This document shows, in pieces, positions 1 to 22,317 of a stretch of DNA of 22,350 bases. Position 1 is the stretch's first letter. Each line of letters starts with the position of its first letter. The position numbers and the translations under genes were made by a program. Origin of the DNA: a virus; the UHGV virus genome UHGV-0185671; one strand, 5' to 3'. The notes under the pieces are model-generated. The model was not told where the DNA came from. It saw only the letters and a program-made list of their open reading frames with translations, and did not search any database.

Positions 1-1086
1 GTGGATTACCCCCAAACGAATCGGAAAATCGATACTGGAAAAACTCTAACTCGGTGGCCAGTTTTTGTTGACCACTTCATTAAGCATCACACGGCTGATG
101 GCGTTGAAGATGGCATTTCAATCTGCTACTTCAAACCATACTCGCAAGGCCGTGCTCGCTGGCAGGGTGACACAATCCACGGCGTGTGGTTTGACGAAGA
201 ACCACCATACAGCATTTATGGCGAAGGCCTTACCCGTACCAACAAATACGGGCAATTCTCAATTCTGACGTTTACCCCGCTGATGGGGATGTCTGATGTC
301 GTTACCAAGTTCCTGAAGAACCCCAGCAAGTCGCAGAAAGTGGTCAACATGACCATCTATGACGCTGAGCACTATACCGACGAGCAGAAAGAGCAAATCA
401 TCGCATCCTATCCCGAGCATGAGAGAGAGGCGCGTGCTCGCGGTATTCCTACGATGGGTAGTGGTCGAATCTTCCAGATACCGGAAGAGACGATTAAGTG
501 TCAGCCATTCGAGTGTCCTGATCACTTCTACGTAATTGGCGGGATGGATTTCGGATGGGATCACCCGCAGGCGCAGGTTCAGCTTTGGTGGGATAAGGAT
601 GCAGACACAATCTACGTTTCACGCGTGTGGAAGGCGAAAGAAAAAACAGCCGTTCAGGCGTGGGGAGCCGTTAAATCATGGGCGCATAAAGTGCCAACCG
701 CATGGCCTCATGACGGAAACCAGCACGAGAAGGGCGGCGGTGAGCAGCTTAAAGGGCAGTACGCGGACGCTGGTTTTATGATGTTGCAGGAGCATGCGAC
801 ATGGCCTGATGGCGGTAATGCTGTTGAGCCTGGAATCACTGAATTGCGCGACATGATGCTTGATGGTCGCTTCAAAGTATTCAACACCTGTGAGCCATTC
901 TTTGAGGAGTTTCGCCTCTATCACCGTGATGAAAACGGGAAGATCGTCAAGCTTAACGACGACGTTCTCTCAGCCGTTCGCTATGCATACATGATGCGCC
1001 GCTTCGCAAAAATGATGCGCGACATCAAAAAACCAAAAGAGAAAAAGATACCAGCCCCAATCAGGCCCATCGCACGGAGAACTTAA
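1..1086 (+). CDS. Terminase large subunit, C-terminal 361 aa (5'-truncated by window edge); P22 gene 2-like
   Basis: Open frame from base 1 ending immediately before the portal gene; position and synteny as in P22 (terminase-portal-scaffold-coat). Identity is from synteny and recalled similarity, not a search. Confidence 0.8.
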   Translation: MDYPQTNRKIDTGKTLTRWPVFVDHFIKHHTADGVEDGISICYFKPYSQGRARWQGDTIHGVWFDEEPPYSIYGEGLTRTNKYGQFSILTFTPLMGMSDVVTKFLKNPSKSQKVVNMTIYDAEHYTDEQKEQIIASYPEHEREARARGIPTMGSGRIFQIPEETIKCQPFECPDHFYVIGGMDFGWDHPQAQVQLWWDKDADTIYVSRVWKAKEKTAVQAWGAVKSWAHKVPTAWPHDGNQHEKGGGEQLKGQYADAGFMMLQEHATWPDGGNAVEPGITELRDMMLDGRFKVFNTCEPFFEEFRLYHRDENGKIVKLNDDVLSAVRYAYMMRRFAKMMRDIKKPKEKKIPAPIRPIARRT

Positions 1087-3252
1087 ATGGCCGACGAAAA
1101 CAGACTCAATTCCATTCTGTGTAAGTTTGACGCAGACTGGATGGCGAGCGATGAAGCCAGAACCGAGGCGACAAATGACCTGTATTTTAGCCGAGTGTCG
1201 CAATGGGATGACTGGCTATCAAACTACACCACCCTGCAATATCGCGGACAATTCGATGTTGTTCGCCCGGTGGTCAGGAAACTGGTCGCAGAGATGCGCC
1301 GGAACCCTATCGACGTTCTATTCAGACCAAAAGACGGCGCTAATCCTGATGCTGCCGATGTGTTGATGGGAATGTATCGTACTGATATGCGCCATAACAC
1401 GGCAAAGATTGCTGTTAACGTTGGCGTTCGTGAGCAGATAGAGTCTGGCGTTGGTGCATGGCGTCTGGTCACGCAGTACGAAGACAACGATCCAACAAGC
1501 AACAATCAGGTAATCCGACGCCTGCCAATCCATGAAGCCTGCTCACACGTCATATGGGACGCAAACAGCAAGCAGATGGATAAGAGCGACGCTAAGCATT
1601 GCACGGTGATTAACGCCTTGTCGCGCAATGGCTGGAAAGAGTTCGCAGAGGATTACGGTATTGATCCGGACGCCTTGCCATCTTTCCAGAATCCGAACGA
1701 TACATGGCTGTTTCCGTGGGTATCGAATGATGTCGTCTACGTCGCTGAGTATTACGAGGTCGAAGAGAAGAAAGAGAAAGTCTTCATCTATCGCGACCCG
1801 CTGACAGGTGAGCCGGTCAGCTATTACCAGCAGGATATTAAAGACGTTATCGACGACCTGGCTAATCGTGGATTCATTAAGGTAGCAGAGCGCAAGGTGA
1901 AGCGTCGGCGTGTGTATAAGTCGATCATCACCTGCACGCAGATACTGAAAGACCGAGAGAAGATAGCCGGAGAGCATATCCCAATCGTTCCAGTGTATGG
2001 CGAATGGTCATTTGCTGGTGACAAGGAGTGCTACGAAGGCGTGGTAAGGCTGACGAAAGACGGCCAACGCCTTCGTAACATGATCATGTCATTCAACGCC
2101 GATATTGTTGCTCGGTCACCGAAGAAGAAACCGACCTTCTTCCCTGAGCAAATAGAAGGCTACGAATACATGTACGGTGGAAATGACGACTATCCGTACT
2201 ATCTGCAGAACAGGACCGATGAAAACGGTAACGACCTGCCGATTGGTCCAATCTCCTACATGGAAAACCCTGAAGTGCCGCAAGCCAACGCTTACATGCT
2301 TGAGGCAGCCACTAACGCAGTGAAAGAGGTGGCTAGTCTTGGCGTGGATGCGCAGGCGGCAAATGGTCAGGTCGCTTTCGATACCGTCAATCAACTGAAC
2401 ATGCGGGCAGACCTTGAGACATACGTGTTTCAGGATAACCTGGCTACCGCAATGCGACGTGATGGCGAGATTTATGCCTCAATGGTCAATGATATTTATG
2501 ACGTTCCTCGTCATGTAACGCTGACACTTGAAGATGGAAGCGAGAAAGACGTTCAACTCTATGCGCAAGTTGTCGATTACCAGTCCGGCAATGTGGTCAC
2601 ACTCAACGATATTCGCGGTCGCTATGAGTGCTATACAGACGTCGGACCATCCTTCCAGAGCATGAAGGAACAGAATCGCGCAGAGATTCAGGAGTTGCTA
2701 ACCAAGGTTCCGCAAGGTACTCCAGAGTTCCAGATGCTGATGCTGCAATACTTCACGCTGCTTGACGGTAAAGGCGTCGAGATGATGCGAGAGTACGCGA
2801 ACAAGCAACTGGTGATGATGGGGCTGAAGAAACCAGAAACACCTGAAGAGATGGAGATGGTACAACAGGCGCAACAGCAGCCGCAGCAGCCATCAGCAGA
2901 GCAAATTCAGGCGCAGGGTATCCTTCTGCAAGGTCAGGCTGAATTGCTCAAGGCAGAGAACCAACAGGCGCAGATTCAGGTTGAAGCTGCCAAGGTTGAA
3001 GCCCAAAACCAGCTCAACGCCGCGAAGATTGCAGAAATCTTCAACAATATGGACCTCGACAAGCAGGCAGAACTGCGTGAGTACCTCAAGCTCGTAGGTC
3101 AATTCCAGCAACAGCGCAGCAAAGATGCTCGTGCTAACGCTGAGCTGCTTCTTAAAGATGCAGACCAGACTCATTCACAACGCATGGATTTCGCGAATCT
3201 TATGCGTCAAGTTCAAATCCCCTCCGGCGGAGTAGCCGAGACACCTCAATAA
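1087..3252 (+). CDS. Portal protein (P22 gp1-like), 721 aa
   Basis: Size close to P22 portal (about 725 aa); Gln/Ala-rich coiled-coil C-terminal barrel region; position between terminase and scaffold. Confidence 0.9.
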
Positions 3253-3265
3253 GAGAGAGTTAATC

Positions 3266-4177
3266 ATGGACCAAACCACCGACATTCAGGCTTCTGAAGA
3301 ATTAACCCTGCCCGGCAATCATGCAGCGGCATCTGCTGATGGCTTAGTTGTCGATAATGCCAACGACAACGCAGGTCAGGAAGAAGGCTTCGAGATTGTC
3401 CTGAAAGACGATGAGAAACCAAAACAAGACCCGGCAACTAATGCTGAATTTGCCCGTCGCCGCATCGAACGCAAACGCCAGCGTGAGCTTGAGCAGCAGA
3501 TGGAAGCGGTTAAGCGAGGGGAGTTGCCGGAGCACCTGCGGGTGAACCCTGAGTTACCAAAACAACCAGACCCTAACGATTATCTTTCCGAAGACGCACT
3601 GGCTAAGTACGACTATGACCAGAGCCGCGCACTGGCTGCCTTCCAGCAGGCAAACAGTGAATGGCAGATCAAGGCTATGGACGCACGAAGCCAGGCTGTC
3701 GCCGAGCAGGGCCGCAAAACTCAGGAGTTCACCCAGCAATCAGCGCAATACGTCGAGGCAGCCCGTAAGCACTACGACGCAGCGGAAAAGCTCAATATCC
3801 CTGACTATCAGGAGAAAGAGGACGCATTCATGCAACTGGTGCCGCCAGCAGTCGGTGCCGACATCATGCGCCTCTTCCCGGAGAAATCCGCTGCACTCAT
3901 GTATCACCTTGGTGCTAATCCTGAGAAAACACGCCAGTTGCTGGCGATGGACGGGCAATCCGCGCTGATTGAACTCACTCGACTGTCAGAACGTTTAACT
4001 CTCAAGCCTCGAGCCAAGCCTGTTTCAGAAGCCCCGTTACCTGATGAACCCATTCAGGGGCACGCTGTTGCTGCAAATATCTCTGCGATTGAAAAGCAGA
4101 TGGAAGCGGCAGCAAACAAAGGGGATGTAGAGACGTACCGCAAGCTCAAGGCGCAACTGAATAAAGGAATTCGATAA
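3266..4177 (+). CDS. Scaffolding protein (P22 gp8-like), 303 aa
   Basis: 303 aa, same length as P22 scaffold; acidic, helix-rich composition; RBS-like GAGAG upstream; sits between portal and coat. Confidence 0.88.
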
Positions 4178-5472
4178 TGGCATTAAATGAAGGTCAACTG
4201 GTCACATATGCTCTGGATGAAATCATCGAAACCGTCCAGAACCTGACGCCAATGGCGTCCAAAGTGACAAAATACACCCCTCCGGCAGAATCCATGCAAC
4301 GTTCAAGCAACACCGTGTGGATGCCTGTTGAGCAGGAAGCGCCAACTCAGACTGGATGGGATTTAACTGGCAACGCTACCGGTATTCTGGAACTGTCCGT
4401 GAAATGCAACATGGGCGATCCAGATAACGATTTCTTCGAGCTTCGTGCAGATGACCTGCGTGATGAGCGTTCTTACCGTCGCCGCATCCAGGCATCCGCC
4501 AAAAAACTGGCGAATAACATTGAGTCAGCAATTGCCAAACAGGCAACTGAAATGGGCTCGCTTGTTGTTCACGATACCCGCGCAATTGGTCCATCTACTG
4601 GCCTGTCTGGTTGGGATTTTGTGTCTGATGCAGAGCGCCTGATGTTCTCCCGCGAACTCAACCGCGACATGGGCATCAGTTACTTCCTGAACCCTGACGA
4701 TTACCGCAAAGCAGGCCGCAACCTGGTAGATGGCGACATCTTCGGGCGAGTTCCTGAAGAAGCGTATCGCAACGGTACTATTCAGCGTCAGATTGCTGGC
4801 TTTGATGAAATTCTTCGCTCACCGAAACTTCCGGCAGTTACCAAGTCAACCGCTACTGGTGTAACTGTTTCTGGTGCGCAGAAGTTTAAGCCGCAGGCAT
4901 ACACCCTTGATACCGATGGTAACAAAGAGAACGTCGACAACCGTGTTGCAACGGTGACCGTATCCTCCACCACCGGATTTAAGCGCGGCGACAAAATCAG
5001 CTTCACTGGTGTGAAGTTCCTGTCTCAGATGGCGAAGAATGTGCTGACTGATGACGCGACTTTCTCAATCACCCGTGTGATCGATAGTACTCACATCGAA
5101 ATCACGCCGAAGCCGATTGCGCTGGATGACGCGTCACTGACAAAAGAAGAGAAGGCTTACGCTAACGTAAACACCTCTCTTGCTGATACCACTCCGGTAA
5201 ACGTTCTGAACGTGGCAACAACCACCGCTAACGTGTTCTGGGCTGATGACTCAATCCGTCTGTTGTCTCAGCCGATCCCGGTAACCCATGAACTGTTTGC
5301 TGGCATGAAAACGTCTTCCTTCAGCATTCCAGGCATTGGTGTTAACGGCATCTTCGCAACGCAGGGTGATATCAACACTCTGTCTGGTAAGTGCCGTATT
5401 GCTGTGTGGTATTCAGCATGTGCTGTACGACCAGAGGCAATTGGTGTTGGTCTGCCTAACCAGACTGCGTGA
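4177..5472 (+). CDS. Major capsid (coat) protein (P22 gp5-like), 431 aa
   Basis: Translation MALNEGQ...GVGLPNQTA closely matches the P22 coat protein as I recall it (start and C-terminus); start overlaps scaffold stop (TAATG). Confidence 0.93.
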
Positions 5473-5478
5473 TAACCA

Positions 5479-5502
5479 GAGGGAGCTTCGGCTCCCTTTT
5501 TT
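5479..5502 (+). terminator. Intrinsic terminator/attenuator downstream of coat gene
   Basis: GGGAGC-TTCG-GCTCCC stem with tetraloop (5481-5496) followed by TTTTTT (5497-5502), 9 nt after the coat stop codon. Confidence 0.7.
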
Positions 5503-5516
5503 ATCTGGAGACAAGC

Positions 5517-5765
5517 ATGACACACATGATCTTTCGTCATGGCGACATGAAGAAGTGGAAAGGCGTTGGCTACGACTTTGAAATCGTGAAAGCCGAAGAG
5601 ATTAAGGAATATCTGGATGCTGGTTGGTTTGCACATCCCGATGACCTTCTGAAGGATGCTGCAGAGCCAGAGCCAGAGCCAGAGCCAGAGCCAGAAGAAA
5701 AACAGCGTAAAAAGCCTGGTCGAAAACCTAAGGCGGCAGCAGATGAACCTGACAACGAAGGGTGA
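5517..5765 (+). CDS. Hypothetical small acidic protein with (Glu-Pro)5 repeat and basic C-terminal tail, 82 aa
   Basis: ATG at 5517 preceded by GGAG (5507-5510); ORF contains tandem hexanucleotide (GAGCCA)x5 at 5664-5693 encoding [10 protein letters not shown]; 3' end overlaps gp4 start by 23 nt. Not part of the canonical P22 gene order as I recall it. Confidence 0.5.
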
Positions 5766-6243
5766 TTTAGTTCTTGCGGCATTACGTAAGCTCGGTGTGG
5801 CATCAAATGCCACGTTAACCGATGTCGAACCGCAGTCCATGGAAGATGGCGTCAATGACCTTGAAATGATGATGGCTGAATGGCTTGGCGGTGATGCGTC
5901 ACCAGGTATCAACGTTGGCTACATTTTCGCTGATGCAGATGTCGCTCCAGATCCTGGCGATGAACACGGCTTATCAAATAACGCTATCAATGCCGTCATT
6001 TTCAACCTTGCCTGCCGCATTGCTCCGGATTATGCGCTGGAAGCGTCTGCAAAACTTATAACCACTGCCAGATACGGGAAAGAGCGACTCGTCAAACTGT
6101 CTGCAATGGACAGAGCAAAAGCCGCAAAATGTAAGTCCGGTTATCCAAACCGTATGCCTGTTGGCAGTGGAAACCAGTTGGCGAAGTGGAACGGTTGGAA
6201 TTACTTCCACCGAAAGGAACCTTGCGATAACGGGAGCGAATAA
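5743..6243 (+). CDS. Head completion / tail adaptor protein (P22 gp4-like), 166 aa
   Basis: Translation from ATG 5743 ([33 protein letters not shown]...) matches the P22 gp4 N-terminus and length (166 aa) as recalled; the longer ORF-track start at 5656 is a repeat-derived extension. Confidence 0.85.
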
Positions 6244-7661
6244 TGCCGATTCAGCAACTTCCGCTTATGAAAGGTGTCGGCAAAGACTTTCGAAACGCCG
6301 ACTATATCGACTATCTGCCAGTGAATATGTTGGCTACACCCAAAGAAATCCTGAACAGCAGCGGATATCTTCGCTCATTCCCGGGCATTGCCAAACGTTC
6401 TGATGTGAACGGCGTATCGCGAGGCGTCGAATACAACATGGCGCAGAATGCTGTTTATCGCGTGTGTGGTGGCAAACTGTATAAGGGCGAAAGTGAGGTC
6501 GGTGATGTTGCCGGAAGTGGTCGCGTATCAATGGCGCATGGTCGAACATCACAGGCGGTAGGCGTTAATGGTCAACTGGTCGAGTATCGCTATGATGGCA
6601 CGGTTAAAACCGTCTCAAACTGGCCTACAGACAGCGGATTCACGCAGTATGAGTTAGGCTCAGTCCGCGACATTACGCGCTTACGTGGGCGTTATGCGTG
6701 GTCAAAAGACGGAACTGATTCATGGTTCATCACTGACCTTGAAGATGAATCACATCCTGACCGATACAGCGCACAATATCGTGCCGAGTCTCAGCCGGAC
6801 GGCATCATCGGTATCGGGACATGGCGAGACTTCATCGTCTGCTTTGGTTCATCGACTATTGAATATTTCTCCCTTACTGGCGCAACCACCGTTGGTGCCG
6901 CTTTGTATGTCGCACAACCATCGCTGATGGTGCAGAAAGGTATTGCCGGAACCTACTGCAAAACGCCATTCGCTGATTCTTATGCGTTCATCAGCAATCC
7001 GGCAACGGGTGCGCCGTCTGTATACATCATCGGCTCTGGTCAGGTATCACCAATCGCCAGCGCGAGCATTGAGAAAATCCTTCGTTCCTACACTGCTGAT
7101 GAACTGGCTGATGGTGTGATGGAGTCTCTGCGATTTGATGCGCATGAGCTGCTAATTATCCATCTTCCGCGCCATGTTCTGGTGTACGACGCATCTTCAA
7201 GCGCCAATGGTCCGCAATGGTGTGTGCTGAAAACAGGCCTGTATGACGATGTGTACCGCGCTATCGACTTCATTTACGAAGGCAATCAGATAACGTGCGG
7301 CGATAAGCTGGAGTCCGTGACCGGGAAATTGCAGTTCGATATCAGCAGCCAGTACGACAAGCAACAGGAACATCTGCTGTTTACTCCGCTGTTCAAAGCG
7401 GATAACGCAAGAGTGTTCGACCTTGAGGTTGAATCGTCAACTGGTGTTGCGCAGTACGCCGACCGCCTGTTCCTCTCTGCAACCACTGACGGCATCAATT
7501 ACGGGCGTGAGCAGATGATTGAGCAGAATGAACCGTTCGTTTACGACAAGCGTGTTTTGTGGAAACGAGTCGGGCGCATCAGGAAAAATGTCGGCTTCAA
7601 ATTGCGCGTTATCACGAAGTCACCTGTCACTCTGTCTGGCTGCCAGATAAGGATTGAGTAA
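6243..7661 (+). CDS. Tail accessory factor (P22 gp10-like), 472 aa
   Basis: 472 aa as in P22 gp10; start overlaps gp4 stop (TAATG); synteny gp4-gp10-gp26. Confidence 0.85.
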
Positions 7662-8362
7662 TGGCTGATTCGAATCTCAATGAGCCGGTAACAATTCAGG
7701 CTACACGACTCGATACATCAATCCTTCCACGCAATATATTCAGCCAGTCTTACCTGCTGTATGTCATAAATCAGGGAGCTGATGTCGCTGCAATTGCTGG
7801 GAAGGCAAATCAGGCTGGTCAGGGCGCTTACGATGCCCAGGTAAAAAACGATGAACAGGATGTCGAACTGGCTGATCACGACGCAAGAATCACCGCAAAC
7901 ACAAAAGCGATAAATCTACTTGAGGTCAGGTTAACAACTGCCGAAGGGAAGATAGTCGTACTGCGTAGCGATGTTGATTACTTGCTGGATGAGGTTATCG
8001 ATATTCAGGCGCATCTGGTCACTGTTGACCAAAGACTGGATGACGTAGAAAACGATGTCTCTGGCATTAAGAGTGATTACGTATCGAAAACCGTAACCGA
8101 ATCGCAGTCTCTTGCGTCACCGCTGGATGTAAAAACATCATATTCAGTTGATGGAATTCAGGTTGTTGGAGCAAGAAATACCGGATGGACTGCAGCCACA
8201 GGTACACCTCTTCTTGGCTCATTCAACGCTAACCAGTCATATACGGTCGGCACTACGTACACACAATCCGAAGTCGCGGCTCTCGCTACAGGTTTGCAGC
8301 AGGCGCGGCAGCGTATTCTGGCGCTTGAAACAGCACTTAGATTACATGGGCTGATTGACTGA
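7661..8362 (+). CDS. Tail needle protein (P22 gp26-like), 233 aa
   Basis: 233 aa as in P22 gp26; N-terminus [18 protein letters not shown] and C-terminus [13 protein letters not shown] closely resemble P22 gp26 as recalled; heptad-rich trimeric coiled-coil region. Confidence 0.9.
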
Positions 8363-8817
8363 TGATTACATTCAAACCAACGCGAAACATCGACCTGATA
8401 GAAGCCGTAGGAAATCACCCTGACATTATCGCTGGTAGCAACAACGGTGATGGATACGACTACAAACCTGAATGCCGTTACTTTGAGGTGAACGTGCACG
8501 GGCAGTTCGGCGGAATTGTTTACTATCAGGAGATTCAGCCGCTAACCTTTGATTGCCACGCCATGTACCTGCCAGAGATTCGTGGATTCAGCAAGGAAAT
8601 CGGGCTGGCGTTCTGGCGATACATTCTGACTAACACCACCGTTCAGTGCGTCACATCGTTCGCTGCGCGCAAATTCCGCCACGGTCAGATGTACTGCGCA
8701 ATGATTGGTCTTAAGCGTGTAGGAACCATCAAGAAATACTTCAAAGGCGTGGATGACGTGACGTTTTACAGCGCCACACGCGAAGAACTAATCGACTTCC
8801 TGAATCACGGGAGATAG
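8362..8817 (+). CDS. gp14-like virion protein, 151 aa
   Basis: Occupies the gene 14 position between tail needle and ejection proteins; start overlaps gp26 stop (TGATG). Assignment is by synteny only. Confidence 0.6.
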   Translation: MITFKPTRNIDLIEAVGNHPDIIAGSNNGDGYDYKPECRYFEVNVHGQFGGIVYYQEIQPLTFDCHAMYLPEIRGFSKEIGLAFWRYILTNTTVQCVTSFAARKFRHGQMYCAMIGLKRVGTIKKYFKGVDDVTFYSATREELIDFLNHGR

Positions 8818-8819
8818 CC

Positions 8820-9512
8820 ATGTTATATGCATTTAAGCTGGGCAGAAAACTGCGCGGCGAGGAACCTTATTGCCCTGAAAAAGGCGGGAAAGGTGGCTCC
8901 GATAAAAGCGCAAAGTATGCAGCAGAAGCTCAGAAGTATGCCGCAGACCTGCAAAATCAGCAGTTCAACACCATCATGAACAACCTGAAACCGTTTACTC
9001 CTCTGGCTGAGAAGTATGTCGGCAGCCTCGAGAACTTATCGTCTCTGGAGGGGCAAGGTCAGGCGCTTAACCAGTATTACAACTCTCAGCAGTACAAAGA
9101 CCTTGCAAGTCAGGCTCGTTATCAGAGTCTGGTGGCAGCGGAAGCAACGGGTGGATTAGGTTCCACCGCAACCAGTAATCAGTTAGCAACAATCGCACCA
9201 ACTCTTGGCCAGCAATGGCTATCTGGACAAATGAACAACTACCAGAATCTGGCAAATATTGGTCTTGGCGCTCTTCAGGGACAGGCAAACGCCGGGCAAA
9301 CATATGCCAACAACATGAGCCAGATTTCACAGCAAAGCGCGGCACTGGCGGCGGCAAACGCTAATAGACCTTCCGGCCTTCAATCTGCAATAGGCGGGGC
9401 TGCCTCTGGAGCAATTGCTGGAGCACAGCTTGGCAGCATTGTACCTGGTATTGGTACTGGTATTGGTGCCGCTGTTGGCGGCGGTCTTGGTCTGCTTGGT
9501 TCACTGTTTTAA
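8820..9512 (+). CDS. Ejection (internal virion) protein gp7-like, 230 aa
   Basis: Size (P22 gp7 about 229 aa), Gln/Ala-rich with a Gly-rich hydrophobic C-terminus; synteny with P22 genes 7-20-16. Confidence 0.8.
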   Translation: MLYAFKLGRKLRGEEPYCPEKGGKGGSDKSAKYAAEAQKYAADLQNQQFNTIMNNLKPFTPLAEKYVGSLENLSSLEGQGQALNQYYNSQQYKDLASQARYQSLVAAEATGGLGSTATSNQLATIAPTLGQQWLSGQMNNYQNLANIGLGALQGQANAGQTYANNMSQISQQSAALAAANANRPSGLQSAIGGAASGAIAGAQLGSIVPGIGTGIGAAVGGGLGLLGSLF

Positions 9513-9522
9513 GGGGTAATCA

Positions 9523-10902
9523 ATGGCTACGTGGCAACAGGGTATTAATTCTGGTGGTTTTCTGGCTGGCATCGGTACGCAAAACGAGAATGCACCAAAG
9601 GCAAGCGACATTAACGCAACGCTTGGTCTGATCCGCGAAAACAATGAGTTGGCTCGCTCAGGTGCAAATAACGTTGGTCTGACCGCGTTACGTGGTCTGG
9701 CTGGAGTTGCTGATATTTACAATCAGGAACAGCAACAGAAAGCGATTAGTGCATTCAATAAGGTTCACGCTGATGCATGGGCTTCTGGTGATCCATCGGG
9801 ACTATTTAAGTTTGCCCAGGAAAATCCAGCGTTTGTTGCACAGGCACAACAGGCATTTTCCGGTCTTAATGAGCAGCAACGCAACGATATGGGCGATTTA
9901 GCCATGAGAGCTAACGTCGCTCTTTCTCAGGGACCGGAAGCCTACAGTAAATTCATTACTGACAACAAGGACAGGTTAAATCACGTGGGTGCGAATGCTG
10001 ACTGGATGATTCAGGCTGGTATCCAGAATCCAGAGCAGCTATCACACATGCTGACTACTATGACGCTAGGGGCGCTTGGACCAGAAAAGGCGTTTGCTGT
10101 TCAGGACAAGATGGCTGGTCGTGAAATTGACCGAGGCAGGCTGGCAGAGACAATCCGCAGCAATCAGGCTGGTGAAGCACTAACAGCGCGTGGTCAGAAC
10201 ATCACGATGCGCGGTCAGGATTTAGCGATGCAGAGAGCATCAATGAAAGGGGCTGTTGGGAATAATGAGCGCACAGTTCAACTAGCAGACGGAAGAACTG
10301 TAACCGTAGGCGGGAAGCTTCATGGTGCTGGTGCTAACGCGTTCTACGAAGGTATAGACAATGAGGGGAACATGGTTCGCGTTCCTGCTGGCTCTATTGC
10401 CGCTCCGGCCACGTCGGCAGCAAGCGCGCAGAATTACGCAATGAAGAAAGATCTTGATGCAATTTCTGGTGCATCAATTGACGATCTTGGCTTCATGACT
10501 GGCATTACAGGCTCTTCAGGTTCTCCTGCTCTTGGTGCAGATATTCGTAGCCGTGCATCTGGTGGTTATCAGAGGAAACTATACAACGCTGCACAGCGAA
10601 TCCAAGGAAAGATGCAGAATCAGGGCATTGCAGCAGCCAGAGACATGGGGGCATCTGGTATCAACACCGTTGCAGAAGCAAAGATGTATTTTCAAGGTAT
10701 GCCACAGGTTGATTTCTCAAGCCCTGAAGCACTACAACAATCAATGCGCGACATTCAGCAATATACCGACAATTACAACCAGCAATATAACGTTAATGTC
10801 GGTAATGGCGGGGAAAAATCATCAAGGCAACAGCCAGCTACTCAGCAATCAGCAGGAGGTAGCTACACGTCAAAATCAGGCATTCAATTTACGGTGGAAT
10901 GA
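9523..10902 (+). CDS. Ejection protein gp20-like, 459 aa
   Basis: Position and size (P22 gp20 about 471 aa); synteny. Confidence 0.8.
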
Positions 10903-12731
10903 TGAAAGTAACTGCAAACGGTAAGACATTTACCTTCCCTGATGGTACGAGCACGGAAGATATTGGCACCGCCATTGATGAGTATTTTGCTGGTCAGGCT
11001 GTTCAGCAACAAACAGTTAATCAGGCCAATAATGAACCAGCACGTGAAGAACCATCATTGATGCAACAAGCTGGCGATTTGCTCACTGGTGGTCAAAGTG
11101 CAGGGCAAATTGCTGAACAGGCTGGTCGCGGTCTGGTAAACATACCATTTGACGTATTGCAGGGTGGCGCAAGTCTGATTAATGCAATCAGCCAGGGGCT
11201 TGGTGGCCCCAAGGTTTTGGATGATGTTTATCGTCCAGTAGACAGACCGACAGACCCCTACGCTCAAGCTGGAGAAACAATTGGCGGGTATTTAGTTCCA
11301 GGAGTTGGAACGGCAGGAAGCATGGCTATTGGATCACTGGCAGAGGCCGCAAATCAGAAAGGCGATTTCGCACAAAATGCAGCTAAAAATGCCGGAGTTA
11401 ACCTTGCCGCTCAGGGTGTTCTTTCCGCAGCAGCAAAGGGAATAGGGCGTGGAATTACTGCTGTTCGTGGCGAAATATCACCCGCAGATCAGCAATTGCT
11501 CAAGCGTGCCGCTGCGGCAGATGTACCAGTTATGACATCGGATGTAGTTCCGCCAAAAACAAAACTTGGCAATCAACTGCAGGGTTACTCAGAAGGAGTC
11601 ATCGCTGGGACTGGACCAATGAGAGCCGCACAGCAGGATGCTAGAACCAAGCTTGTTAATCGCTTCACCGAAAAATACGGCGACTACGATCCATCTGTAG
11701 TAGTTGATAGTCTAAAGTCAGGCGTTGCAAGGGAAAAATCGTTAGCCAAGTCAAAACTAAACAACCTGTCAGGAAGAATGGTTGGAAAGCCAGTTGATAC
11801 AAGTGGCGCCATAAGAGCTATAGACGGAGCAGTAAACGAACTTGGGAAACTTAAAGGTGTTTCTGACACCCAGACCATTTCTGCGCTTAATGATTATAAG
11901 AATGCCATTCAGGAGATAACAAATGGAGATGATGCCTTTGAGTTACTTGATAAGCTGAGAACTCAGTTCCGCATTGACGTAAAAGGCGATCGTACAGTTC
12001 TGCCATCAATGTCGCAAACAATGGTCGACAGGGTCTACAACTCGCTAACCAATAGCCTTAGTAAATCTATAGCGAAAGGACTTAGCCCAAAAGATGCTTC
12101 AGCATGGAGAGCAGGAAAAGCTGATTATGCAAAAATGGCAACACATGCAACTCAGACGCGCCTTAAAAACGTTCTAAACAAAGGAGATTTAACTCCCGAG
12201 GCTGTAAATACCATTGTTTATGGACAATATGGGTCAGATATAGCTCGATTGTACGGGAAACTCGATCAAAAAGGTAAAGACATGCTAAGGGCTGCATATA
12301 TCAGCAAAATAGCTGACAAGGTAGGTGACAGCACTCAGAAAATGATGATCGAGCTTGGCAAGCTGCAAAAACAAGCAAATGGTCAGGTGTTTAAAACTGT
12401 ATTTGGCGGGAAGAACGGAAAAGAGATAGAGGGAATGTTATCTATTCTCGATGCTACCAAAAGAGCATCTGAGGCTAATGTTGTGACGAAGACTGGCATG
12501 ACACTCGCGCCTTTGGTAAGGGTTATTGGTAACCTAAAAACCGGAGGCGCGCTATTGGCTGGGGAAACAGGGATTGGCCTTATGTCTAGGGTTTATGAAA
12601 GCACTATGGCTAGGAATGCGCTCTTACGTCTGGCAAACACTAAAGCTGGAACGCCAGCTTATGAAAGAGCGTTAAGCAAAGCTGCAAATGTCATCAGACC
12701 GCTGCTTGCCACTGAGGTAACACAGCAGTGA
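10899..12731 (+). CDS. Ejection protein gp16-like, 610 aa
   Basis: Position and size (P22 gp16 about 609 aa); start overlaps gp20 stop (ATGA); last gene of the rightward virion block. Confidence 0.82.
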
Positions 12732-13064: not shown

Positions 13065-13613
13065 TTAGTGTAATCTCTGATCGTCTGAATCTTGTAAGAA
13101 CTCCATGAGACTTTGAACCGGAATTGGTTCTATTGATGATAATGTGAACACAGGAATATTGAGACTTTTGCAACGCTCAAACACTCCCTTATCATGAGTC
13201 CATACCTCGTCAGCATTAATTGCTCTTGCAATTGCTATTATTTGTCTGTCAAACTTAATTTTGTTTGCTGTACCTTCTGTGCTAATTTTCCTTAATTCTT
13301 TTAATGTTGGTATCGATGCGCATTCAATAGCAGCCAACTCATCAAATGATACAGTCTCGAAGCATGATAACGATTTGATAACATTCAGTTTTTCTTGTTG
13401 GTAATCTTTATGGATTCCAACTAAAAACTCCGCCAATACAGGAGTTGGAACGATGATTGTCCCGTTCTTGTTATCTATCCGATCAACAAGAGCTTCTGCT
13501 CTTCTTTTGGCATCTGGAATCTCAGAACCAAGTATAGGGTCAGATAATCTATAATCGTGTTCTATATCTGATAGTAGGTATACCAGAATATTGGTATCTA
13601 AAATTACTCGCAA
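13065..13613 (-). CDS. PIN-domain nuclease (VapC-like toxin/effector), 182 aa
   Basis: N-terminal MRVILDTNILVYLL beta-strand with Asp6, then Glu62 (VLAEF), Asp122 (FDRQIIAIARA) and Asp141 (WTHDKG), the canonical four-acidic PIN arrangement. TTG start at 13611-13613 with a GAGGA RBS 7 nt upstream; start overlaps the stop of the upstream gene by 10 nt. Confidence 0.75.
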   Translation of the reverse strand: MRVILDTNILVYLLSDIEHDYRLSDPILGSEIPDAKRRAEALVDRIDNKNGTIIVPTPVLAEFLVGIHKDYQQEKLNVIKSLSCFETVSFDELAAIECASIPTLKELRKISTEGTANKIKFDRQIIAIARAINADEVWTHDKGVFERCKSLNIPVFTLSSIEPIPVQSLMEFLQDSDDQRLH

Positions 13614-14323
13614 TTTATCTTCCTCAGAGTCCTAAGGATTGAATCAACATCGCGTTCCTCGGACCACTGATCTCCAGGAACTTGCTTGATAGCATTAATA
13701 GCATCCTTGAGTGATGATTTTTTGAGCAATGCAAATGAAGTTATTTTTAGTTTCTTTAGCTCCCATTTGTTGTTCTTTTTTTCCCAGCACCCATCTCCTT
13801 TAACCCTAATATATTTGAATAGATGGGACCCAAGAGCTGCTGCCAAATCAGGGGTTGCCTCGCACTTGAATGTTTCACCGTTGACTCCCTCAATACGCAC
13901 AGGTATTGAGTTGTCTTTTCCGCCAACACTGTATAGCCTTCCTTGAACTTCTGACGTTTTTGTTATGAGTAAAGGGATTGGCTCCTTTTTTACTCGCGGG
14001 AATGCGATAATGGTTGAGTGGTTTCGTCCGAGTAGTTTCGCTGAAAAACCATCATGTTCCAGTAAATTAACAATTTTTTGATACGCAGGTGATTTCTCTT
14101 TGGCTGAGAGAGAGGCCCTTGCTATGACAGCGTTATAACAAATATCATTATCGACCCATGCATTTAAGTCAGCCGATCCTTCACTTACACAGTCGAAGTG
14201 AACAGAATCTGCAGAACCGTATAGATCTACGAGAGCAGACATATACTTGACCAACTTAGCCATTGACAGCTGGCTAGGGGTGGTTCCGTCAAGTTTTAAT
14301 GTGAGTCCATTGCTTTTTTTCAT
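13604..14323 (-). CDS. Uncharacterised protein partnered with PIN nuclease (candidate sensor/antitoxin), 239 aa
   Basis: ATG at 14321-14323 (minus); long uninterrupted ORF; stop overlaps the PIN start, suggesting translational coupling; no recognisable DNA-binding or catalytic motif by eye; AT-rich relative to flanking virion genes. Confidence 0.65.
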   Translation of the reverse strand: MKKSNGLTLKLDGTTPSQLSMAKLVKYMSALVDLYGSADSVHFDCVSEGSADLNAWVDNDICYNAVIARASLSAKEKSPAYQKIVNLLEHDGFSAKLLGRNHSTIIAFPRVKKEPIPLLITKTSEVQGRLYSVGGKDNSIPVRIEGVNGETFKCEATPDLAAALGSHLFKYIRVKGDGCWEKKNNKWELKKLKITSFALLKKSSLKDAINAIKQVPGDQWSEERDVDSILRTLRKINCE

Positions 14324-16162: not shown

Positions 16163-18301
16163 ATGACAGACATTACAGCCAATGTTGTAGTGAGCATGCC
16201 TTCGCAACTCTTCACTATGGCGCGTTCTTTTAAAGCCGTAGCTAATGGCAAAATTTATATCGGTAAAATTGACACTGACCCGGTAAATCCTGATAACCAG
16301 ATTCAGGTCTATGTTGAGAACGAAGATGGCTCTCACGTTCCTGTTGCACAGCCAATCGTCATCAATGCCGCAGGGTATCCAGTATATAACGGACAGATTG
16401 CCAAGTTCGTAACTGTGCAAGGCCATTCTATGGCTGTTTATGATGCGTATGGTACGCAGCAGTTCTATTTTCCGAATGTGCTGAAGTATGACCCTGATCA
16501 GCTACGGCAGCAATTAGAAGACCCGGATGGAGCTAAAAAATATCCTGAATTGCAGATATCTCGGTGGAGGGACGATTGTGATGTAAGAGGGTGGGGGGCA
16601 AAAGGCGATGGTATAACAGATGATACATCTGCATTGATCCTGGCTGCAGAATATGCACGAGAATCATCCAGAACATTACGAGCGGAAGGTAATTTTATTA
16701 TTACGGAGACATTAAATCTTCGTAATGTCAGCCTCGAAATGACCAATGCTGTTTTTACCATATCCCACTCAGGAATAGGAGTATTGCTTGGCGGGAATGC
16801 ATCAAACCCTAACAACCCAAAGCAAAACTTCGGAGCGATTATCAGAAATTCTGGCATTTCATCTGAAACGACACCGGATATTCGTATTATCGGGGCAAAA
16901 GGGCAGCATATTAACATTGAGCGTTGCGACTACTTACAGTTATATGCAAATTATAATGCTTCGGTGGCATCGACGGATTATTCAATAGCATACTCAACCT
17001 TTAACCTGAAAAAGGTCGATACAATTCATTTTCTTGGCGTTGAGAACGGATGGATAAATGAAAATTATTTTTATCTGAATCGTACGAATAATATCATTTT
17101 CGCTGATAATCCATATCATCATAACCACAATAAGTTTTATGGTGGAACTATGGAGGGGGAAGGTAAAATTGACATTCAAAGAGGTGATAACAATCACTTC
17201 TATGGGTTTCGTTTTGAACGATATCCATCATCCCCAACTAACCAACAGTTGATAATTAACTTTGGTGAATATACGTGGAATAACTCAATTGAAGCTACAT
17301 GGCTTTCATCTCCTGCGTATACAAATGAGCCATACAATCCATCACCTTACACTTATGTCGAGGTAACTGATAATGGCAAGGGGAATGCAGTATTTCATAT
17401 TCAGGAAAATATATCCGATGAAGTAACATTGTTTTCTTTAAATGCTAACACCCCATTTATATCTAGTGCTAACAATGGAGAGGTTGGTGCATTAGCATAT
17501 CAAACGGATGTTGATGGTTTATATAATATCCGTCACCTGGTTTCTTCTAAGTTTGCTTTTATGAGGAATTTTGGGCTCTTATGGGAATCTGGAGATATAC
17601 CTGTAAGAAATGGTGATATGTTTACATTCTCAGCAGATGCGGCATCGTTTCGTATTTACCTATATGCATTAGATAGAGATGGGAATGTCATAACCTCACA
17701 AACAGAAGCCATAACTTCTTCTATGCAATGGGATTCTGCCAACCATAGGTATGCCACTGCTGTTAATATTTCTTCAATTAAGATCAGGATTAATAATGAA
17801 GGAGTTCCAGTTAGTGCAGTTCGTTTAGCTGTGTATTCTGGTGGTAATGTAGTGAATACTGCATTTTCATGGCTATGCTTAACTGGGAGATATTACAAAA
17901 ATAGCACATCCTTGCCAAGGAAAAGTAAAAATACTTTTACTTTAAAACAAGGGAAAGCAATTACTTATTATAGTGATACTGATATTAGTATGGCTAACAT
18001 TGGTTCAGGAATTACCTGTTATAAAACCGATTTATCTGAACTCAAAATTAATCTTGTAAGGGGCAGGTATGTAGTGAAATCGATTTCAGGTAGTGAAATA
18101 TATGTATACCAAGGAACAATCACTTATTACCCTCCATTCAGTGATATCAAATTGGTATATACGGATGGGATTGAAAATAAATTATTAGATGTGCAAAGCA
18201 TCTCTTCAGGAAAGATTACTCTTGCAGATACAGTACCATCAGCTATATCTGCAGGCGATTTTGTAGATGTTATTGTTACAAAGACGAAATCTATTTTATG
18301 A
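16163..18301 (+). CDS. Tailspike protein (P22 gp9-like head-binding N-domain fused to a divergent beta-helix receptor-binding/depolymerase domain), 712 aa
   Basis: N-terminal about 115 aa ([17 protein letters not shown]...VLKYDPDQ) matches the conserved P22-family tailspike head-binding domain; downstream [11 protein letters not shown] motif is typical of right-handed beta-helix (pectate-lyase-like) depolymerases; the 3' two-thirds is AT-rich. Confidence 0.88.
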
Positions 18302-18335
18302 TGTGTTTATTTATCCTTATGTTAAAGGAGTGATA

Positions 18336-18623
18336 ATGGATATAACACCCTTCCTTCATGCGCTTTGTGCTGTTGTCGCACAGATACTGGTTGGTCTTTT
18401 TACCGGAAACTGGGTTTACGGAGCGATAGCCGGCTGTACGTTCTTCATTGCGCGTGAACACACCCAGGCAGAATATCGCTGGATTGAAATGTTCGGACAT
18501 GGCAAGCGGATTAACATGCCGTGGTGGGGCGGTTTTGACCCACGCGCGTGGGATGTAGCAAGTCTGATGGATTTTTCTGTGCCGGTGGTGGCGTGTCTGC
18601 TGGTCTGGCTGTTGAGCCGTTAA
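18336..18623 (+). CDS. Hypothetical small membrane protein, 95 aa
   Basis: ATG 18336 preceded by AAGGAG; two hydrophobic segments (LCAVVAQILVGLFTG...; VPVVACLLVWLL); lies immediately after tailspike where P22 carries gtr O-antigen conversion genes. Confidence 0.55.
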   Translation: MDITPFLHALCAVVAQILVGLFTGNWVYGAIAGCTFFIAREHTQAEYRWIEMFGHGKRINMPWWGGFDPRAWDVASLMDFSVPVVACLLVWLLSR

Positions 18624-19082
18624 ACATAAGAATCCGCAGTGTCTTGCCATGACAAGTTACAGCGGATGGCTGGTGAACTATCGATAGTGCGAGTATTGAA
18701 TGATTTCCAGCCGTTACTGATTGTACGCATTTTTGTATGAGAGGATTTGCACCACCTCGCATTGACCATCCATGACTGTACGCCACTATCTCTAGGACTG
18801 CTATGTGACAGCAGCAGACAATGCTGACATCCCTGTGCACCAATCAACACGGAGCAAGCCAGTCAGTTTATGAACGGAGTGAGTTGTCAAAAGTTGTTGC
18901 CTGCTTCCATTGGCATCGGAAATTTTTGAGTGTGCACACTCTAAGCTACTGTTGCTTCATAAGGTTGTATTGATATTACTGATACATTAGGTTATGTTTG
19001 AGAGACAACATTAAGGATTATTTTTACTTTTTGTTTACGACAAATATTATATAATTTTATTAATAACTCTATTTAGTAAGGT

Positions 19083-19859
19083 ATGGTTATGAAATTGTAT
19101 TCTGAAAGCTCAGATGAAAAAGATGCATTATATCTGCTTTCTTATATCAATGATGTTATTTTGCCTGCTTCAGTCGATTTTTTTGAAAAACTAGAAGATA
19201 ATTCCTTGAGATTGCATCACGTTTTTTCATTTAATGCAATTCTTGCTCATGCGACAGATTATATAGTTTATATCGTTAACAAAAAAAACAGCATAAAAAG
19301 GATTGATTTCCTGAAAGGTTTTGATGAAAGATACTCTGTAGATGGTTGTTGTTTTATTAATAATAAATTTGAACTTTTAGATGCTGTGAATAATTCCTTT
19401 AAGCATGTTGAGTTAAAAAAGGAACGATATCCTGAACTGATAAAAAGATATGGCGATCTATCATTCCATTGCTTGAAAGAAGATTCTGGAAAAGTTTTTT
19501 TTAGAACGTCTGGATATCAATTTGATTATTCTAGAGTGGTTCTAAGACCAATTGCTAAAATATTCGATTGTGGACTCAAAGATAATAATGATGTTGATGA
19601 TTTTATAAACGGAAGAATATTTGGGAGTTGTGGTTATGGACATTTTCTATATGACTATGAACCATATGATTCAATTGATAGAATGATAGACTACTGTAAC
19701 GCACAATGTATGGATTGTGGTGAGTATGCGGATGACTGCGATTGTCATAATTATGAATACAATAAAGAAAAAGGCAAATATAATCCTGACTTAGATCCTA
19801 ACTTCGATTTTGATGATGTTATGTCAAATATTAGTGGCACAAGGGAATGGAGTAAGTAA
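19083..19859 (+). CDS. Hypothetical Asp/Cys-rich protein, 258 aa (AT-rich cargo)
   Basis: Long ORF in a very AT-rich block with an AT-rich upstream region; C-terminus has clustered Cys/His/Asp (CGYGHF...CNAQCMDCGEYADDCDCH), suggesting metal binding; no family recognised. Confidence 0.55.
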   Translation: MVMKLYSESSDEKDALYLLSYINDVILPASVDFFEKLEDNSLRLHHVFSFNAILAHATDYIVYIVNKKNSIKRIDFLKGFDERYSVDGCCFINNKFELLDAVNNSFKHVELKKERYPELIKRYGDLSFHCLKEDSGKVFFRTSGYQFDYSRVVLRPIAKIFDCGLKDNNDVDDFINGRIFGSCGYGHFLYDYEPYDSIDRMIDYCNAQCMDCGEYADDCDCHNYEYNKEKGKYNPDLDPNFDFDDVMSNISGTREWSK

Positions 19860-20369
19860 TATTTTTTCTAAAAGGTACATTGATTGATGGAATGATTAGG
19901 CTTTTATTCTAGAGCGATTTAATGGCATCTTTGAGCAGGTGATAGGCGGTACAAAATGATTGATGAACCATTACCGGACGATTGAAGAAACATTTAAGCA
20001 GGTGCTCAAAGAAGTATTCGAGACGTTGGTGTGAAGGCTGATGTTGATGTTAATTTAAAACTCCCCACGGTTCTATTAAAGTAGATAATACTTGCTATTG
20101 ATGTAAGGAGTGTAGGTGCCCGCTATTCGCTCACATCGGATCTTTAGTGGCACATAGCTGTCTGCTATTTGCTAGGAGCGTACGCTGTTATTTTCGTTGT
20201 CCATGTCCGATAACGCAAAATTTTATTTAGTAGATTCACGGGGGGGGTGGCGGGTACTTTCATGACTGGTTGGGGAGTAAATGTAAATTAGAGGGCTGAT
20301 ATAAAACAGTCCGGAATGTAGGGGTATCATCCTACCAATCGAATCAGAACTACTAAGGAAAATAAGGCA

Positions 20370-21188
20370 ATGACTAAACATATTATGCACCCCGACCATG
20401 TCGCTGAGATTTGCAGCCAAATCAAAAAATCAAACAACAGAGATTTTATCTATGATAGCTTTCGCCAATTGCTAAGCCAGTTGCCGATGGGATTTCATGA
20501 TGTAACCGCCACGACTGTATGGCGATCGAGGAAAACTGATGTGGCCCACCAGGAAGGGTTCGATCATGTTACCGATATTATTTATCCACCTGCGCAGTAT
20601 GCCAAAACCGGAAGGCTAAATACGGATGGGGTGTCTATTTTATACGCATCTATCAGCAATCATGGATGCCTGGCAGAAATAGGAGCCCAGCCGGGGGATA
20701 AAGTGCATGTGTCCGCATTCACCCTGAAACCAGAGCAGAGACTGCATTGCGGCTTTTTTGGCGATATTGTTAGGGCACATAAATGGAGTAGCGAAGATTT
20801 TACACAGGTACAAAAAATCCTTGAGCCGTATACGGAAGCGCAAAAAACCAGTATTTTCATGATAGACAGTTTCCTTGCTGAAACACTTGCTGATAGCCGA
20901 GCGAAGGAAAACCATTACCTGCATACCACAACACTTGCTGATGTCATCCGCAATGGGAAAAATGCGTTGGATGCTATCGTTTATCCTGGAGTGGAGTCCT
21001 CCGGCGCCAAGAACTATGCAATCCACTGCGACGCAATGATTAAATTCAATATTGCAGATATGTACCTGCTAGAGATAACCAAAAAGCATCCCTACGGGCT
21101 GTATGAATGGCGGATACTTAAGCAATTAGAAAGCTATGATGATGGCCGAATTATCTGGAAAGAGCCATGCTGTGCGAATGTTGCATGA
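20370..21188 (+). CDS. Probable RES-domain protein (toxin-like NAD-targeting family), 272 aa
   Basis: Motif GRLNTDGVSILYASISNHGCLAEI (Arg82 ... Glu103) resembles the conserved Arg/Glu core of RES domains, with a later Ser-containing segment (YPGVESSG); recognised by eye only. Confidence 0.5.
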   Translation: MTKHIMHPDHVAEICSQIKKSNNRDFIYDSFRQLLSQLPMGFHDVTATTVWRSRKTDVAHQEGFDHVTDIIYPPAQYAKTGRLNTDGVSILYASISNHGCLAEIGAQPGDKVHVSAFTLKPEQRLHCGFFGDIVRAHKWSSEDFTQVQKILEPYTEAQKTSIFMIDSFLAETLADSRAKENHYLHTTTLADVIRNGKNALDAIVYPGVESSGAKNYAIHCDAMIKFNIADMYLLEITKKHPYGLYEWRILKQLESYDDGRIIWKEPCCANVA

Positions 21189-21387
21189 TGTGTTGCTGCG
21201 CGAGGAAAGGTATATGATATTTCTTTTGAGTGCTGTCAGCAGCACTCAATAACTGCGCATAATTGTAGATCCTGTAGAGTGAACTCAGTCCGGATTGTTC
21301 TATCTGAGCAATCGTTAAACCACTTGGTAAGGCTGGTTCCCGCTTCTCGCTCATAACAGACATTCACTTCAGTTATGGCAGAAAGGT

Positions 21388-21624
21388 ATGCGTGCTTGGT
21401 GTGGGGAAGCAGTGAAAGAAAAAGAAGACTGCTGCGCCATTTGTCGTCACTGCTATCTTCTTATTGCTTATGAAGGTCGTAGTGAGGCACACAAAGCTTT
21501 GCGAATTACAAGGCCTTGTGCTTCTCTGGAGTGCGACAGGTTTGATGACAAAAAATTAGCGCAAGAAGACAAAAATCACCTTGCGCTAATGCTCTGTTAC
21601 AGGTCACTAATACCATCTAAGTAG
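21388..21624 (+). CDS. Small hypothetical ORF in lambda b-region-like sequence adjacent to attP arm, 78 aa
   Basis: ORF only; Cys-rich; the surrounding DNA appears to me to be lambda-derived sequence flanking attP. Coding status uncertain. Confidence 0.25.
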   Translation: MRAWCGEAVKEKEDCCAICRHCYLLIAYEGRSEAHKALRITRPCASLECDRFDDKKLAQEDKNHLALMLCYRSLIPSK

Positions 21625-21840: not shown

Positions 21841-22317
21841 TTAACTAAACATCGCAGTAATCGAGGCGCTTGCCAGAGAATGGAAATGGACGTTAAACCC
21901 GACCATCGCGCCGCTGGCACCTTCATCGACATCAATACGTTCTACATCCAGCGCGTGAACGGTAAAAATGTAGCGATGGGTTTCGCCTTTCGGCGGCGCT
22001 GCACCATCGTACCCGGTTTTACCAAAGTCGGTACGCGTCTGCAAAACGCCGTCTGGCATTGCTACCAGACCAGAGCCAAACCCTTGCGGTAATACGCGGG
22101 TATCAGCGGGTAAGTTAACAACTACCCAGTGCCACCAGCCGGAACCGGTTGGCGCATCCGGGTCGTAACAGGTGACAACAAAACTTTTCGTTCCCGCAGG
22201 AACATCATCCCACGCCAGATGCGGTGAAATATTATCGCCATCGTAACCCATGCCGTTAAAGACATGACGATGTGGCAACTTATCGCCATCGCGCAGATCG
22301 TTACTGATGAGTTTCAT
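21841..22317 (-). CDS. ybhB: Host PEBP-family (UPF0098) protein YbhB, 158 aa
   Basis: Translation MKLISNDLRDGDKLPHRHVFNGMGYDGDNISPHLAWDDVPAGTKSFVVTCYDPDAPTGSGWWHW... matches E. coli YbhB as recalled; gene lies beside attB-lambda in the gal-bio interval. Confidence 0.85.
   Translation of the reverse strand: MKLISNDLRDGDKLPHRHVFNGMGYDGDNISPHLAWDDVPAGTKSFVVTCYDPDAPTGSGWWHWVVVNLPADTRVLPQGFGSGLVAMPDGVLQTRTDFGKTGYDGAAPPKGETHRYIFTVHALDVERIDVDEGASGAMVGFNVHFHSLASASITAMFS

Follow-up and report, generated by a model that had tools for sequence, protein, structure and literature searches.

RAZR (PD-T7-4), a ring-activated zinc-finger RNase, joins an N-terminal Cys4 zinc ribbon to a C-terminal DUF4145 HEPN domain with the catalytic residues R146/H154, and its activators are ring-forming phage proteins (portal, Erf-like) (Zhang et al., Nature 2026, PMC13017515). 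The protein family analysed here, represented by an AT-rich ORF in a P22-like prophage, differs from RAZR in three respects: the domain order is reversed, with a predicted helical part at the N-terminus and a Cys4 segment at the C-terminus; its motif lacks the arginine of the catalytic R146/H154 pair; and its Cys4 segment is well conserved, whereas in RAZR no part varies more than the zinc finger. Neither DUF4145 nor the PADLOC PD-T7-4 model matched the ORF protein (PADLOC cut-off E <= 1). The HepT-type toxins of the MNT-HEPN (type VII) toxin-antitoxin systems (PDB 8xdj, 7ae2, 5yep, 1ylm) differ as well: their Rx4H arginine and AMPylated tyrosine are both absent from the ORF family, which has no MNT partner and possesses an additional 130-residue C-terminal region with the Cys4 motif.

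The single-gene HEPN abortive infection families AbiV, AbiJ/Taranis, Esos, ApeA and DS-11 are likewise small stand-alone genes carried by prophages, PICIs, integron cassettes and defence islands, and none of the corresponding PADLOC and Pfam models matched the ORF protein at E <= 1. Because no cluster of 7PET (pandemic) size was found, the family is probably not among the 16 cassette systems of V. cholerae N16961 such as Esos. Homologues do occur at exactly the loci that hold P2 GpA-GpQ and P4 hotspot cargo, although the carrier in the window is P22-like and neither P2 nor P4. In earlier work, six of eight randomly chosen P4 loci of unassigned function protected against phage (Rousset et al. 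2022, PMC9122126; NAR 2026, PMC13586616). None of the systems that have been validated and named (Crouga, Bandua, Aernus, Toga, Reve, Hailong) is this family; no name, model or experiment that matches it was found in Rousset 2022, the NAR 2026 study of P2/P4, DefensePredictor and the integron-cassette preprint, and its peptides are absent from the supplementary text of the DefensePredictor screen.

The window, by which we mean the whole stretch of 22,350 nucleotides that was analysed, covers the late half of a prophage of the P22-like (Lederbergvirus) type. Behind the genes for portal, coat and ejection proteins come an immI-like region encoding Mnt and the antirepressor Ant, the tailspike gene, a membrane ORF, the AT-rich ORF, a RES-domain ORF and finally the chromosome. 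The prophage/chromosome junction lies at about 21340, and since the flank from there to 22350, including ybhB (21841-22317, minus strand), has 96.2% identity to E. coli K-12, the host is an Escherichia. The AT-rich ORF is found at the right end of the prophage, next to ybhB and about 1.5 kb from attR; lying between the tailspike gene and attR, it thus occupies a cargo (moron) slot. None of the 5,426 complete E. coli genomes contains the cargo segment (18800-21400).

Several neighbours in the window deserve a brief description. The 712-aa tailspike (16163-18301) is a mosaic: its N-terminal head-binding part, at 44.6% GC, has matches in E. coli P22-like phages as far as about 16500, and its receptor-binding part, at 36% GC, has no close match in the phage collection. 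The 118-aa membrane ORF (18267-18623, plus strand) matches phrog_1443 from residue 24 on, so that it probably starts near 18336, outside the tailspike gene. Between the ejection genes and mnt, where sieA is located in P22, a region of 36-40% GC (13065-14323, minus strand) holds two overlapping ORFs, one of 182 aa with a PIN domain (Pfam PIN 4e-10) and one of 239 aa without Pfam or PADLOC match; together they may be another module, either a second moron or toxin-antitoxin-like. On the other side of the AT-rich ORF, after 510 bp of non-coding DNA and on the same strand, a 272-aa RES-domain ORF (20370-21188, plus strand; Pfam RES 1.2e-8) ends about 150 bp from the prophage/chromosome junction. 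With no Xre/DUF2384 antitoxin upstream and no PADLOC match, it is possibly a RES toxin or defence gene of a solitary or non-canonical kind.

The AT-rich ORF itself spans 19083..19859 on the plus strand and has 258 codons in the ORF listing of the window. Its true start is probably the ATG at 19089, giving a protein of 256 aa (coding sequence 19089..19859), because the ATG at 19083 is an ATA in the closest non-identical orthologue, that of Klebsiella, because an AAGG Shine-Dalgarno sequence (19079-19082) stands 6 nt 5' of the ATG at 19089, and because the 114 homologues recovered by a word-index search are typically 256 aa long. Residue numbers below follow the 258-aa numbering. An AT-rich upstream region (18964..19088, plus strand) travels with the ORF and is 83% identical to the Klebsiella island; the sigma-70-like hexamers TTTACT...TATTAT/TATAAT that it contains at 19023-19054 are a candidate promoter, at the level of consensus only.

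The composition of the ORF agrees with what the earlier note had remarked, namely that it is AT-rich relative to the virion genes and that its product is rich in cysteine and aspartate. Its GC content is 30.6%, with 21.8% at third codon positions, against 49.9% for the virion genes (1-12731) and 52% for the chromosomal ybhB, and the protein, with 3.9% Cys, 12.1% Asp and a net charge of about -15, is very acidic. The ORF shares 92% amino-acid and 83% nucleotide identity with the Klebsiella orthologue, and in this pairwise comparison dS is 0.51 and dN 0.041, or a dN/dS of 0.08. Among the 114 homologues, more than 100 diverged ones keep an uninterrupted full-length frame, and 19 columns are invariant in a family alignment of 40 sequences. 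Because the frame is kept in so many homologues and dN/dS is so low, the comparison indicates that the ORF is a functional gene under strong purifying selection and no chance ORF; a frame not conserved in any relative, which the earlier note had named among the findings that would refute its reading, was not what the comparison showed. An IS or pseudogene fragment was ruled out, as there is no transposase domain, the frame is intact and selection is purifying.

Part of the history of this copy can be read from its relationship with the Klebsiella island. The window and the island have a segment of 1.15 kb in common (18964-20113, 83% identity), which comprises a promoter region of about 125 bp, the ORF and the first ~53 codons of an Mrr gene. 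In Klebsiella an intact Mrr_cat gene follows the family gene; in the window only a decayed 5' remnant of this restriction-endonuclease gene is left (19953..20113, plus strand), about 53 codons with in-frame stops, reading MIDEPLPDD*RNI*AGAQ... versus MIDDPLPDDWRELQAGVQ... in Klebsiella. Judging from this alignment, the Mrr stub marks the end of the transferred segment. Mrr was rejected as a partner, the pairing being confined to the Klebsiella lineage and the Mrr gene being dead in the window; that the ORF stayed intact while its Mrr neighbour decayed argues that it works on its own.

The family could not be connected to any described one, and here the impression of the earlier note that it belongs to no recognisable family was borne out by all searches of Pfam, NCBIfam, PHROGs, PADLOC and PDB profiles. 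The ORF protein and 40 homologues had no significant match in Pfam, NCBIfam, PHROG or PADLOC, and no member matched the Pfam HEPN families; matches of some members to NADase_NGA, Rubredoxin and PBDC1 (E >= 0.004) were treated as chance. The 114 homologues of the word-index search, mostly 60-70% identical to the ORF protein and every one annotated 'hypothetical', come from Kangiella, Pseudoalteromonas, Serratia, Citrobacter, E. coli, Acinetobacter, Vibrio, Shewanella, Psychrobacter and Campylobacterota. Searching 1.84 billion representative proteins exhaustively with an HMM brought up no more than 56 clusters, of which about 20 are full length, and no remote relative with a known domain, barring one doubtful protein. 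The latter (P0111, 247 aa, from a Logan contig) has family residues 40-171 fused to a C-terminal LHH (HNH/EndoVII-type) nuclease domain (Pfam 1.9e-6); as it is known from one short contig, the fusion is probably a chimera or rearrangement, and it may be a genuine domain swap. Two other distant members (P0184, 353 aa, and P0185, 361 aa) carry some 100 extra N-terminal residues without recognisable domain.

The family is also rare and scattered. A scan of the 185,579 species genomes of GTDB yielded 33 loci, with a patchy distribution in Gamma- and Betaproteobacteria, Campylobacterota, Bacteroidota, Planctomycetota (Phycisphaerales) and others; six IMG/VR contigs carry a member, as does one of the 72,556 plasmids of PLSDB, and there are zero homologues in 50,697 GenBank phage genomes. 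Among 5,426 complete E. coli genomes, six have a P4-linked homologue and none has the copy of the window. Across its hosts the main clade keeps a GC content of 30-37% with flanks at 41-58%. The recent foreign origin that had been suggested for the ORF thus holds as regards a foreign, AT-rich gene and is doubtful as regards recency, the nearest copy outside the prophage having only 83% DNA identity. Taken by their distribution and composition, the members form a small, compact, unnamed and horizontally mobile family.

Computed with the family alignment, the AlphaFold2 model of the protein is a single confident globule (pLDDT 89.9, pTM 0.87) made of five helices (12-123), a three-stranded sheet (131-148), more helices and a Cys-rich segment between 205 and 221. 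HEPN proteins are built on a four-helix up-down bundle and are metal-independent endoribonucleases, usually dimeric. The five helices form a predicted all-helical N-terminal domain with what may be a weakly HEPN-like fold (about residues 12-125; 19122..19457, plus strand); the C-terminal region (residues 126-258; 19458..19856, plus strand) is predicted to hold the sheet, the further helices and a Cys4 knuckle. When the C-terminal half was modelled alone, pTM reached only 0.43, and so, in the models, this region packs on the N-terminal domain and has no independent fold.

The block of highest conservation in the family is AVNNSFKHVE, with the lowest column entropy (0.42 bits). Its core, N103-N104-S-F-K107-H108 (19389..19406, plus strand), in which N103, K107 and H108 are invariant, is located in the model at the end of helix 4, ahead of helix 5. 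The spacing of N103-N104-x-x-K107-H108 is that of the HEPN R-N-x3-H motif, but an invariant Asn stands in place of the Arg; the family thus has the His and the second-position Asn and does not conform to the Rx4-6H catalytic motif of HEPN proteins. In a 142-aa HepT-like toxin, RNxxxH occupies positions 100-105, numerically near 103-108 here, a likeness of numbering only and not of residue-level superposition. Beyond this block, H56, D59, R73, D148 and R151 are invariant polar residues in the alignment of 40. Foldseek of the model against the PDB gave nothing significant; HEPN proteins were the sole consistent structural neighbours, with non-significant scores (HEPN toxins at E 6.8-8.4 only). 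There was no match to the model in BFVD, no significant one in PDB sequence-profile searches with full-length and C-terminal profiles (best E 1.2, and in one of these searches no match at all at E <= 10), and hhalign of the family against a purpose-built PF08780 HepT-like profile found no similarity (probability 0.4%).

The second conserved element lies in the C-terminal region, where a Cys/His/Asp metal-binding cluster had been proposed. The cysteines C209, C212, C219 and C221 are invariant in the 40 homologues and C205 is nearly so, forming a putative zinc knuckle C209-x2-C212-x6-C219-x-C221 (19707..19745, plus strand) that is kept in distant members too; H222 and the remaining five cysteines of the window copy are not conserved. 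The proposal is therefore retained for the Cys4 motif but not for the histidine, which is variable and stands outside the conserved motif. The Cys4 segment would fit a structural zinc knuckle built of two knuckles, CxxC ... CxC.

Relatives of the ORF are carried by several unrelated kinds of element. In P2-like prophages of Serratia the homologue is inserted between portal Q and GpA, adjoining a SmaI-type restriction-modification system; the GpA–GpQ interval is the main defence hotspot of P2 (PMC9122126, PMC13586616). In P4-like satellites of E. coli, Klebsiella and Salmonella it is found between the alpha primase gene and att, a minor P4 defence hotspot that accounts for 7% of systems (PMC13586616). 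The Vibrio cholerae homologue is a single-gene superintegron cassette between VCR attC repeats. At this locus (L022) the repeats are at 108-230, 1023-1147 and 1621-1743, and the next cassette encodes a 167-aa protein with no assigned function. On Rep3 plasmids of Acinetobacter the gene has as its neighbour either a type II CBASS or an M78+Beta_protein pair. In these Acinetobacter loci (L010-L014), which fall into two plasmid/contig backgrounds, one with the type II CBASS and the other with M78+Beta_protein and a P4 cII-like gene, the gene always lies 3' of a gene for a 188-aa serine resolvase, which suggests a resolvase-linked mobile module.

Other copies reside in islands and integrative elements. 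The chromosomal island of Klebsiella has, besides Mrr_cat directly downstream, SIR2_2+DUF4365, HNH_2, AbiTii, integrases and IS elements upstream of the gene; a Citrobacter integrative element combines the homologue with EcoRII restriction-modification, an AAA_13 ATPase and HNH. The homologue adjoins a NERD-domain gene in Shewanella (with a JetD-like gene near), M78+DUF4411 in A. baumannii and an MNT/HEPN toxin-antitoxin pair in Campylobacterales. The 29 further GTDB loci are mixed: PtuA-, AriA- and GajA-like ATPases, MADS genes, AbiLi, HNH, relaxases, integrases and GpA occur, housekeeping genes make up many of the neighbours, and those that match defence models are in the minority. By this survey of neighbourhoods, location in defence hotspots or beside defence systems of unrelated elements is recurrent, and weaker in the 29 GTDB loci. 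An all-against-all comparison of neighbour ORFs within 7 kb at 42 loci detected no family common across lineages, which indicates that family members act without a conserved partner gene. The stand-alone moron or defence gene that the earlier note had imagined is thereby upheld as to its independence and its defence-type settings, with the defence function itself inferred from genomic context only.

Because a strongly conserved, unnamed family moves alone between hotspots of phages, satellites, plasmids and integrons, the ORF most likely encodes a new, putative single-gene anti-phage defence factor, a proposal to which genomic context alone has led us. More specifically, it is plausible, if somewhat short of an even chance, that the protein is a stand-alone accessory (moron) protein for anti-phage or inter-element defence that acts as a phage-triggered HEPN-like RNase. 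The many housekeeping neighbours in the GTDB loci, the zero count in phage genomes and an acidity that would also fit a DNA-mimic counter-defence protein are points against it. The same defence-type settings would be expected if the gene served defence by another chemistry, the helical domain being a ligand- or nucleotide-binding or scaffold module and the effector lying elsewhere (a zinc-dependent nuclease, an NAD-consuming, a membrane or another toxic activity). The missing HEPN arginine, a HEPN likeness without profile or Foldseek support and the invariant H56, D59, R73, D148 and R151 outside the NNxxKH motif are consistent with such a protein, as are weak sub-threshold NADase_NGA matches of three members (best E 0.014). 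However, the NADase matches are no better than chance, the N-x3-H spacing of HEPN motifs persists in the best-conserved block, and HEPN proteins are the only structural neighbours that recur; we therefore regard another chemistry as possible but unlikely.

A function outside defence has also to be weighed. A very acidic protein borne by prophages, satellites, plasmids and integrons, and encoded in Klebsiella directly upstream of an Mrr-type restriction gene, could be a counter-defence or other fitness factor of mobile elements, either a DNA mimic or inhibitor directed against host restriction or a zinc-finger regulator. Yet the gene is found as well in chromosomal islands and in cassettes without phage or plasmid backbone, its positions are those of late or cargo genes and not of early or leading-region ones, no phage genome of the GenBank set contains it, it was kept intact in the window although its Mrr neighbour decayed, and P2 rarely carries anti-defence genes and P4 carries none (PMC13586616), all of which make this role distinctly improbable. 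Still less can be said for a two-gene system in which the ORF would be the antitoxin or sensor of the downstream RES protein, in place of the usual Xre partner. The RES ORF does follow on the same strand without an Xre-type antitoxin, and a metagenome contig has the same pair; but 98.6% identity over 3.2 kb shows the contig to be this very prophage, no RES protein appears in any other setting, clustering of neighbours at the 42 loci reveals no common partner, a dead Mrr fragment separates the two genes and their GC contents differ (31% for the ORF, 45% for RES). With no Xre/DUF2384-type domain in the ORF protein either, an antitoxin role was rejected on the co-occurrence data and the pair as a whole is very improbable. 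Finally, AT-richness and rarity in E. coli might suggest an ORF that is spurious or degenerating, either a selfish or addictive element or a passenger that decays without benefiting its host, but this is scarcely credible given the dN/dS, the frame kept in diverged homologues and the 19 invariant residues; a junk ORF is essentially refuted by these conservation data.

We thus return to the phage-triggered HEPN-like RNase and propose a model by analogy with RAZR (PD-T7-4), itself a single-protein zinc-finger/HEPN RNase. The N-terminal helical domain would be a divergent HEPN-like module whose active or ligand site is formed by the invariant N-N-x-x-K-H block together with H56, D59, R73 and R151. 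The Cys4 zinc knuckle would hold together the C-terminal region, which may act as the regulatory, trigger-sensing part of the protein. The protein would be harmless until activated by a phage component; once activated, it would cleave RNA, and the infection would be aborted. It is tempting to speculate that we are dealing with a new single-protein immune module, with an Arg-less HEPN-like or wholly new NNxxKH active site and a Cys4 sensor, directly activated by the phage, free of partner or antitoxin and moving as a single cassette, but we consider this stronger proposal doubtful.

If the defence function is confirmed, an unnamed single-gene system of 256 aa would be added to the anti-phage repertoire, from a family that DefenseFinder- and PADLOC-style tools currently overlook. 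This family circulates in pathogens of the Enterobacterales (Klebsiella, Enterobacter, Morganella, E. coli, Serratia), in Vibrio and in Acinetobacter, and it does so in four kinds of vehicle: a P22-like prophage, the P2 and P4 hotspots, an integron cassette and plasmids. Because it is small and free of partners, the gene is easy to test and is a potential tool. If the HEPN assignment is true, the Arg-less motif would probe the limits of divergence of the HEPN catalytic motif; if defence is not borne out, the gene would be an ordinary orphan moron. For now, the family is best filed as putative single-gene defence cargo with a nuclease-like domain.
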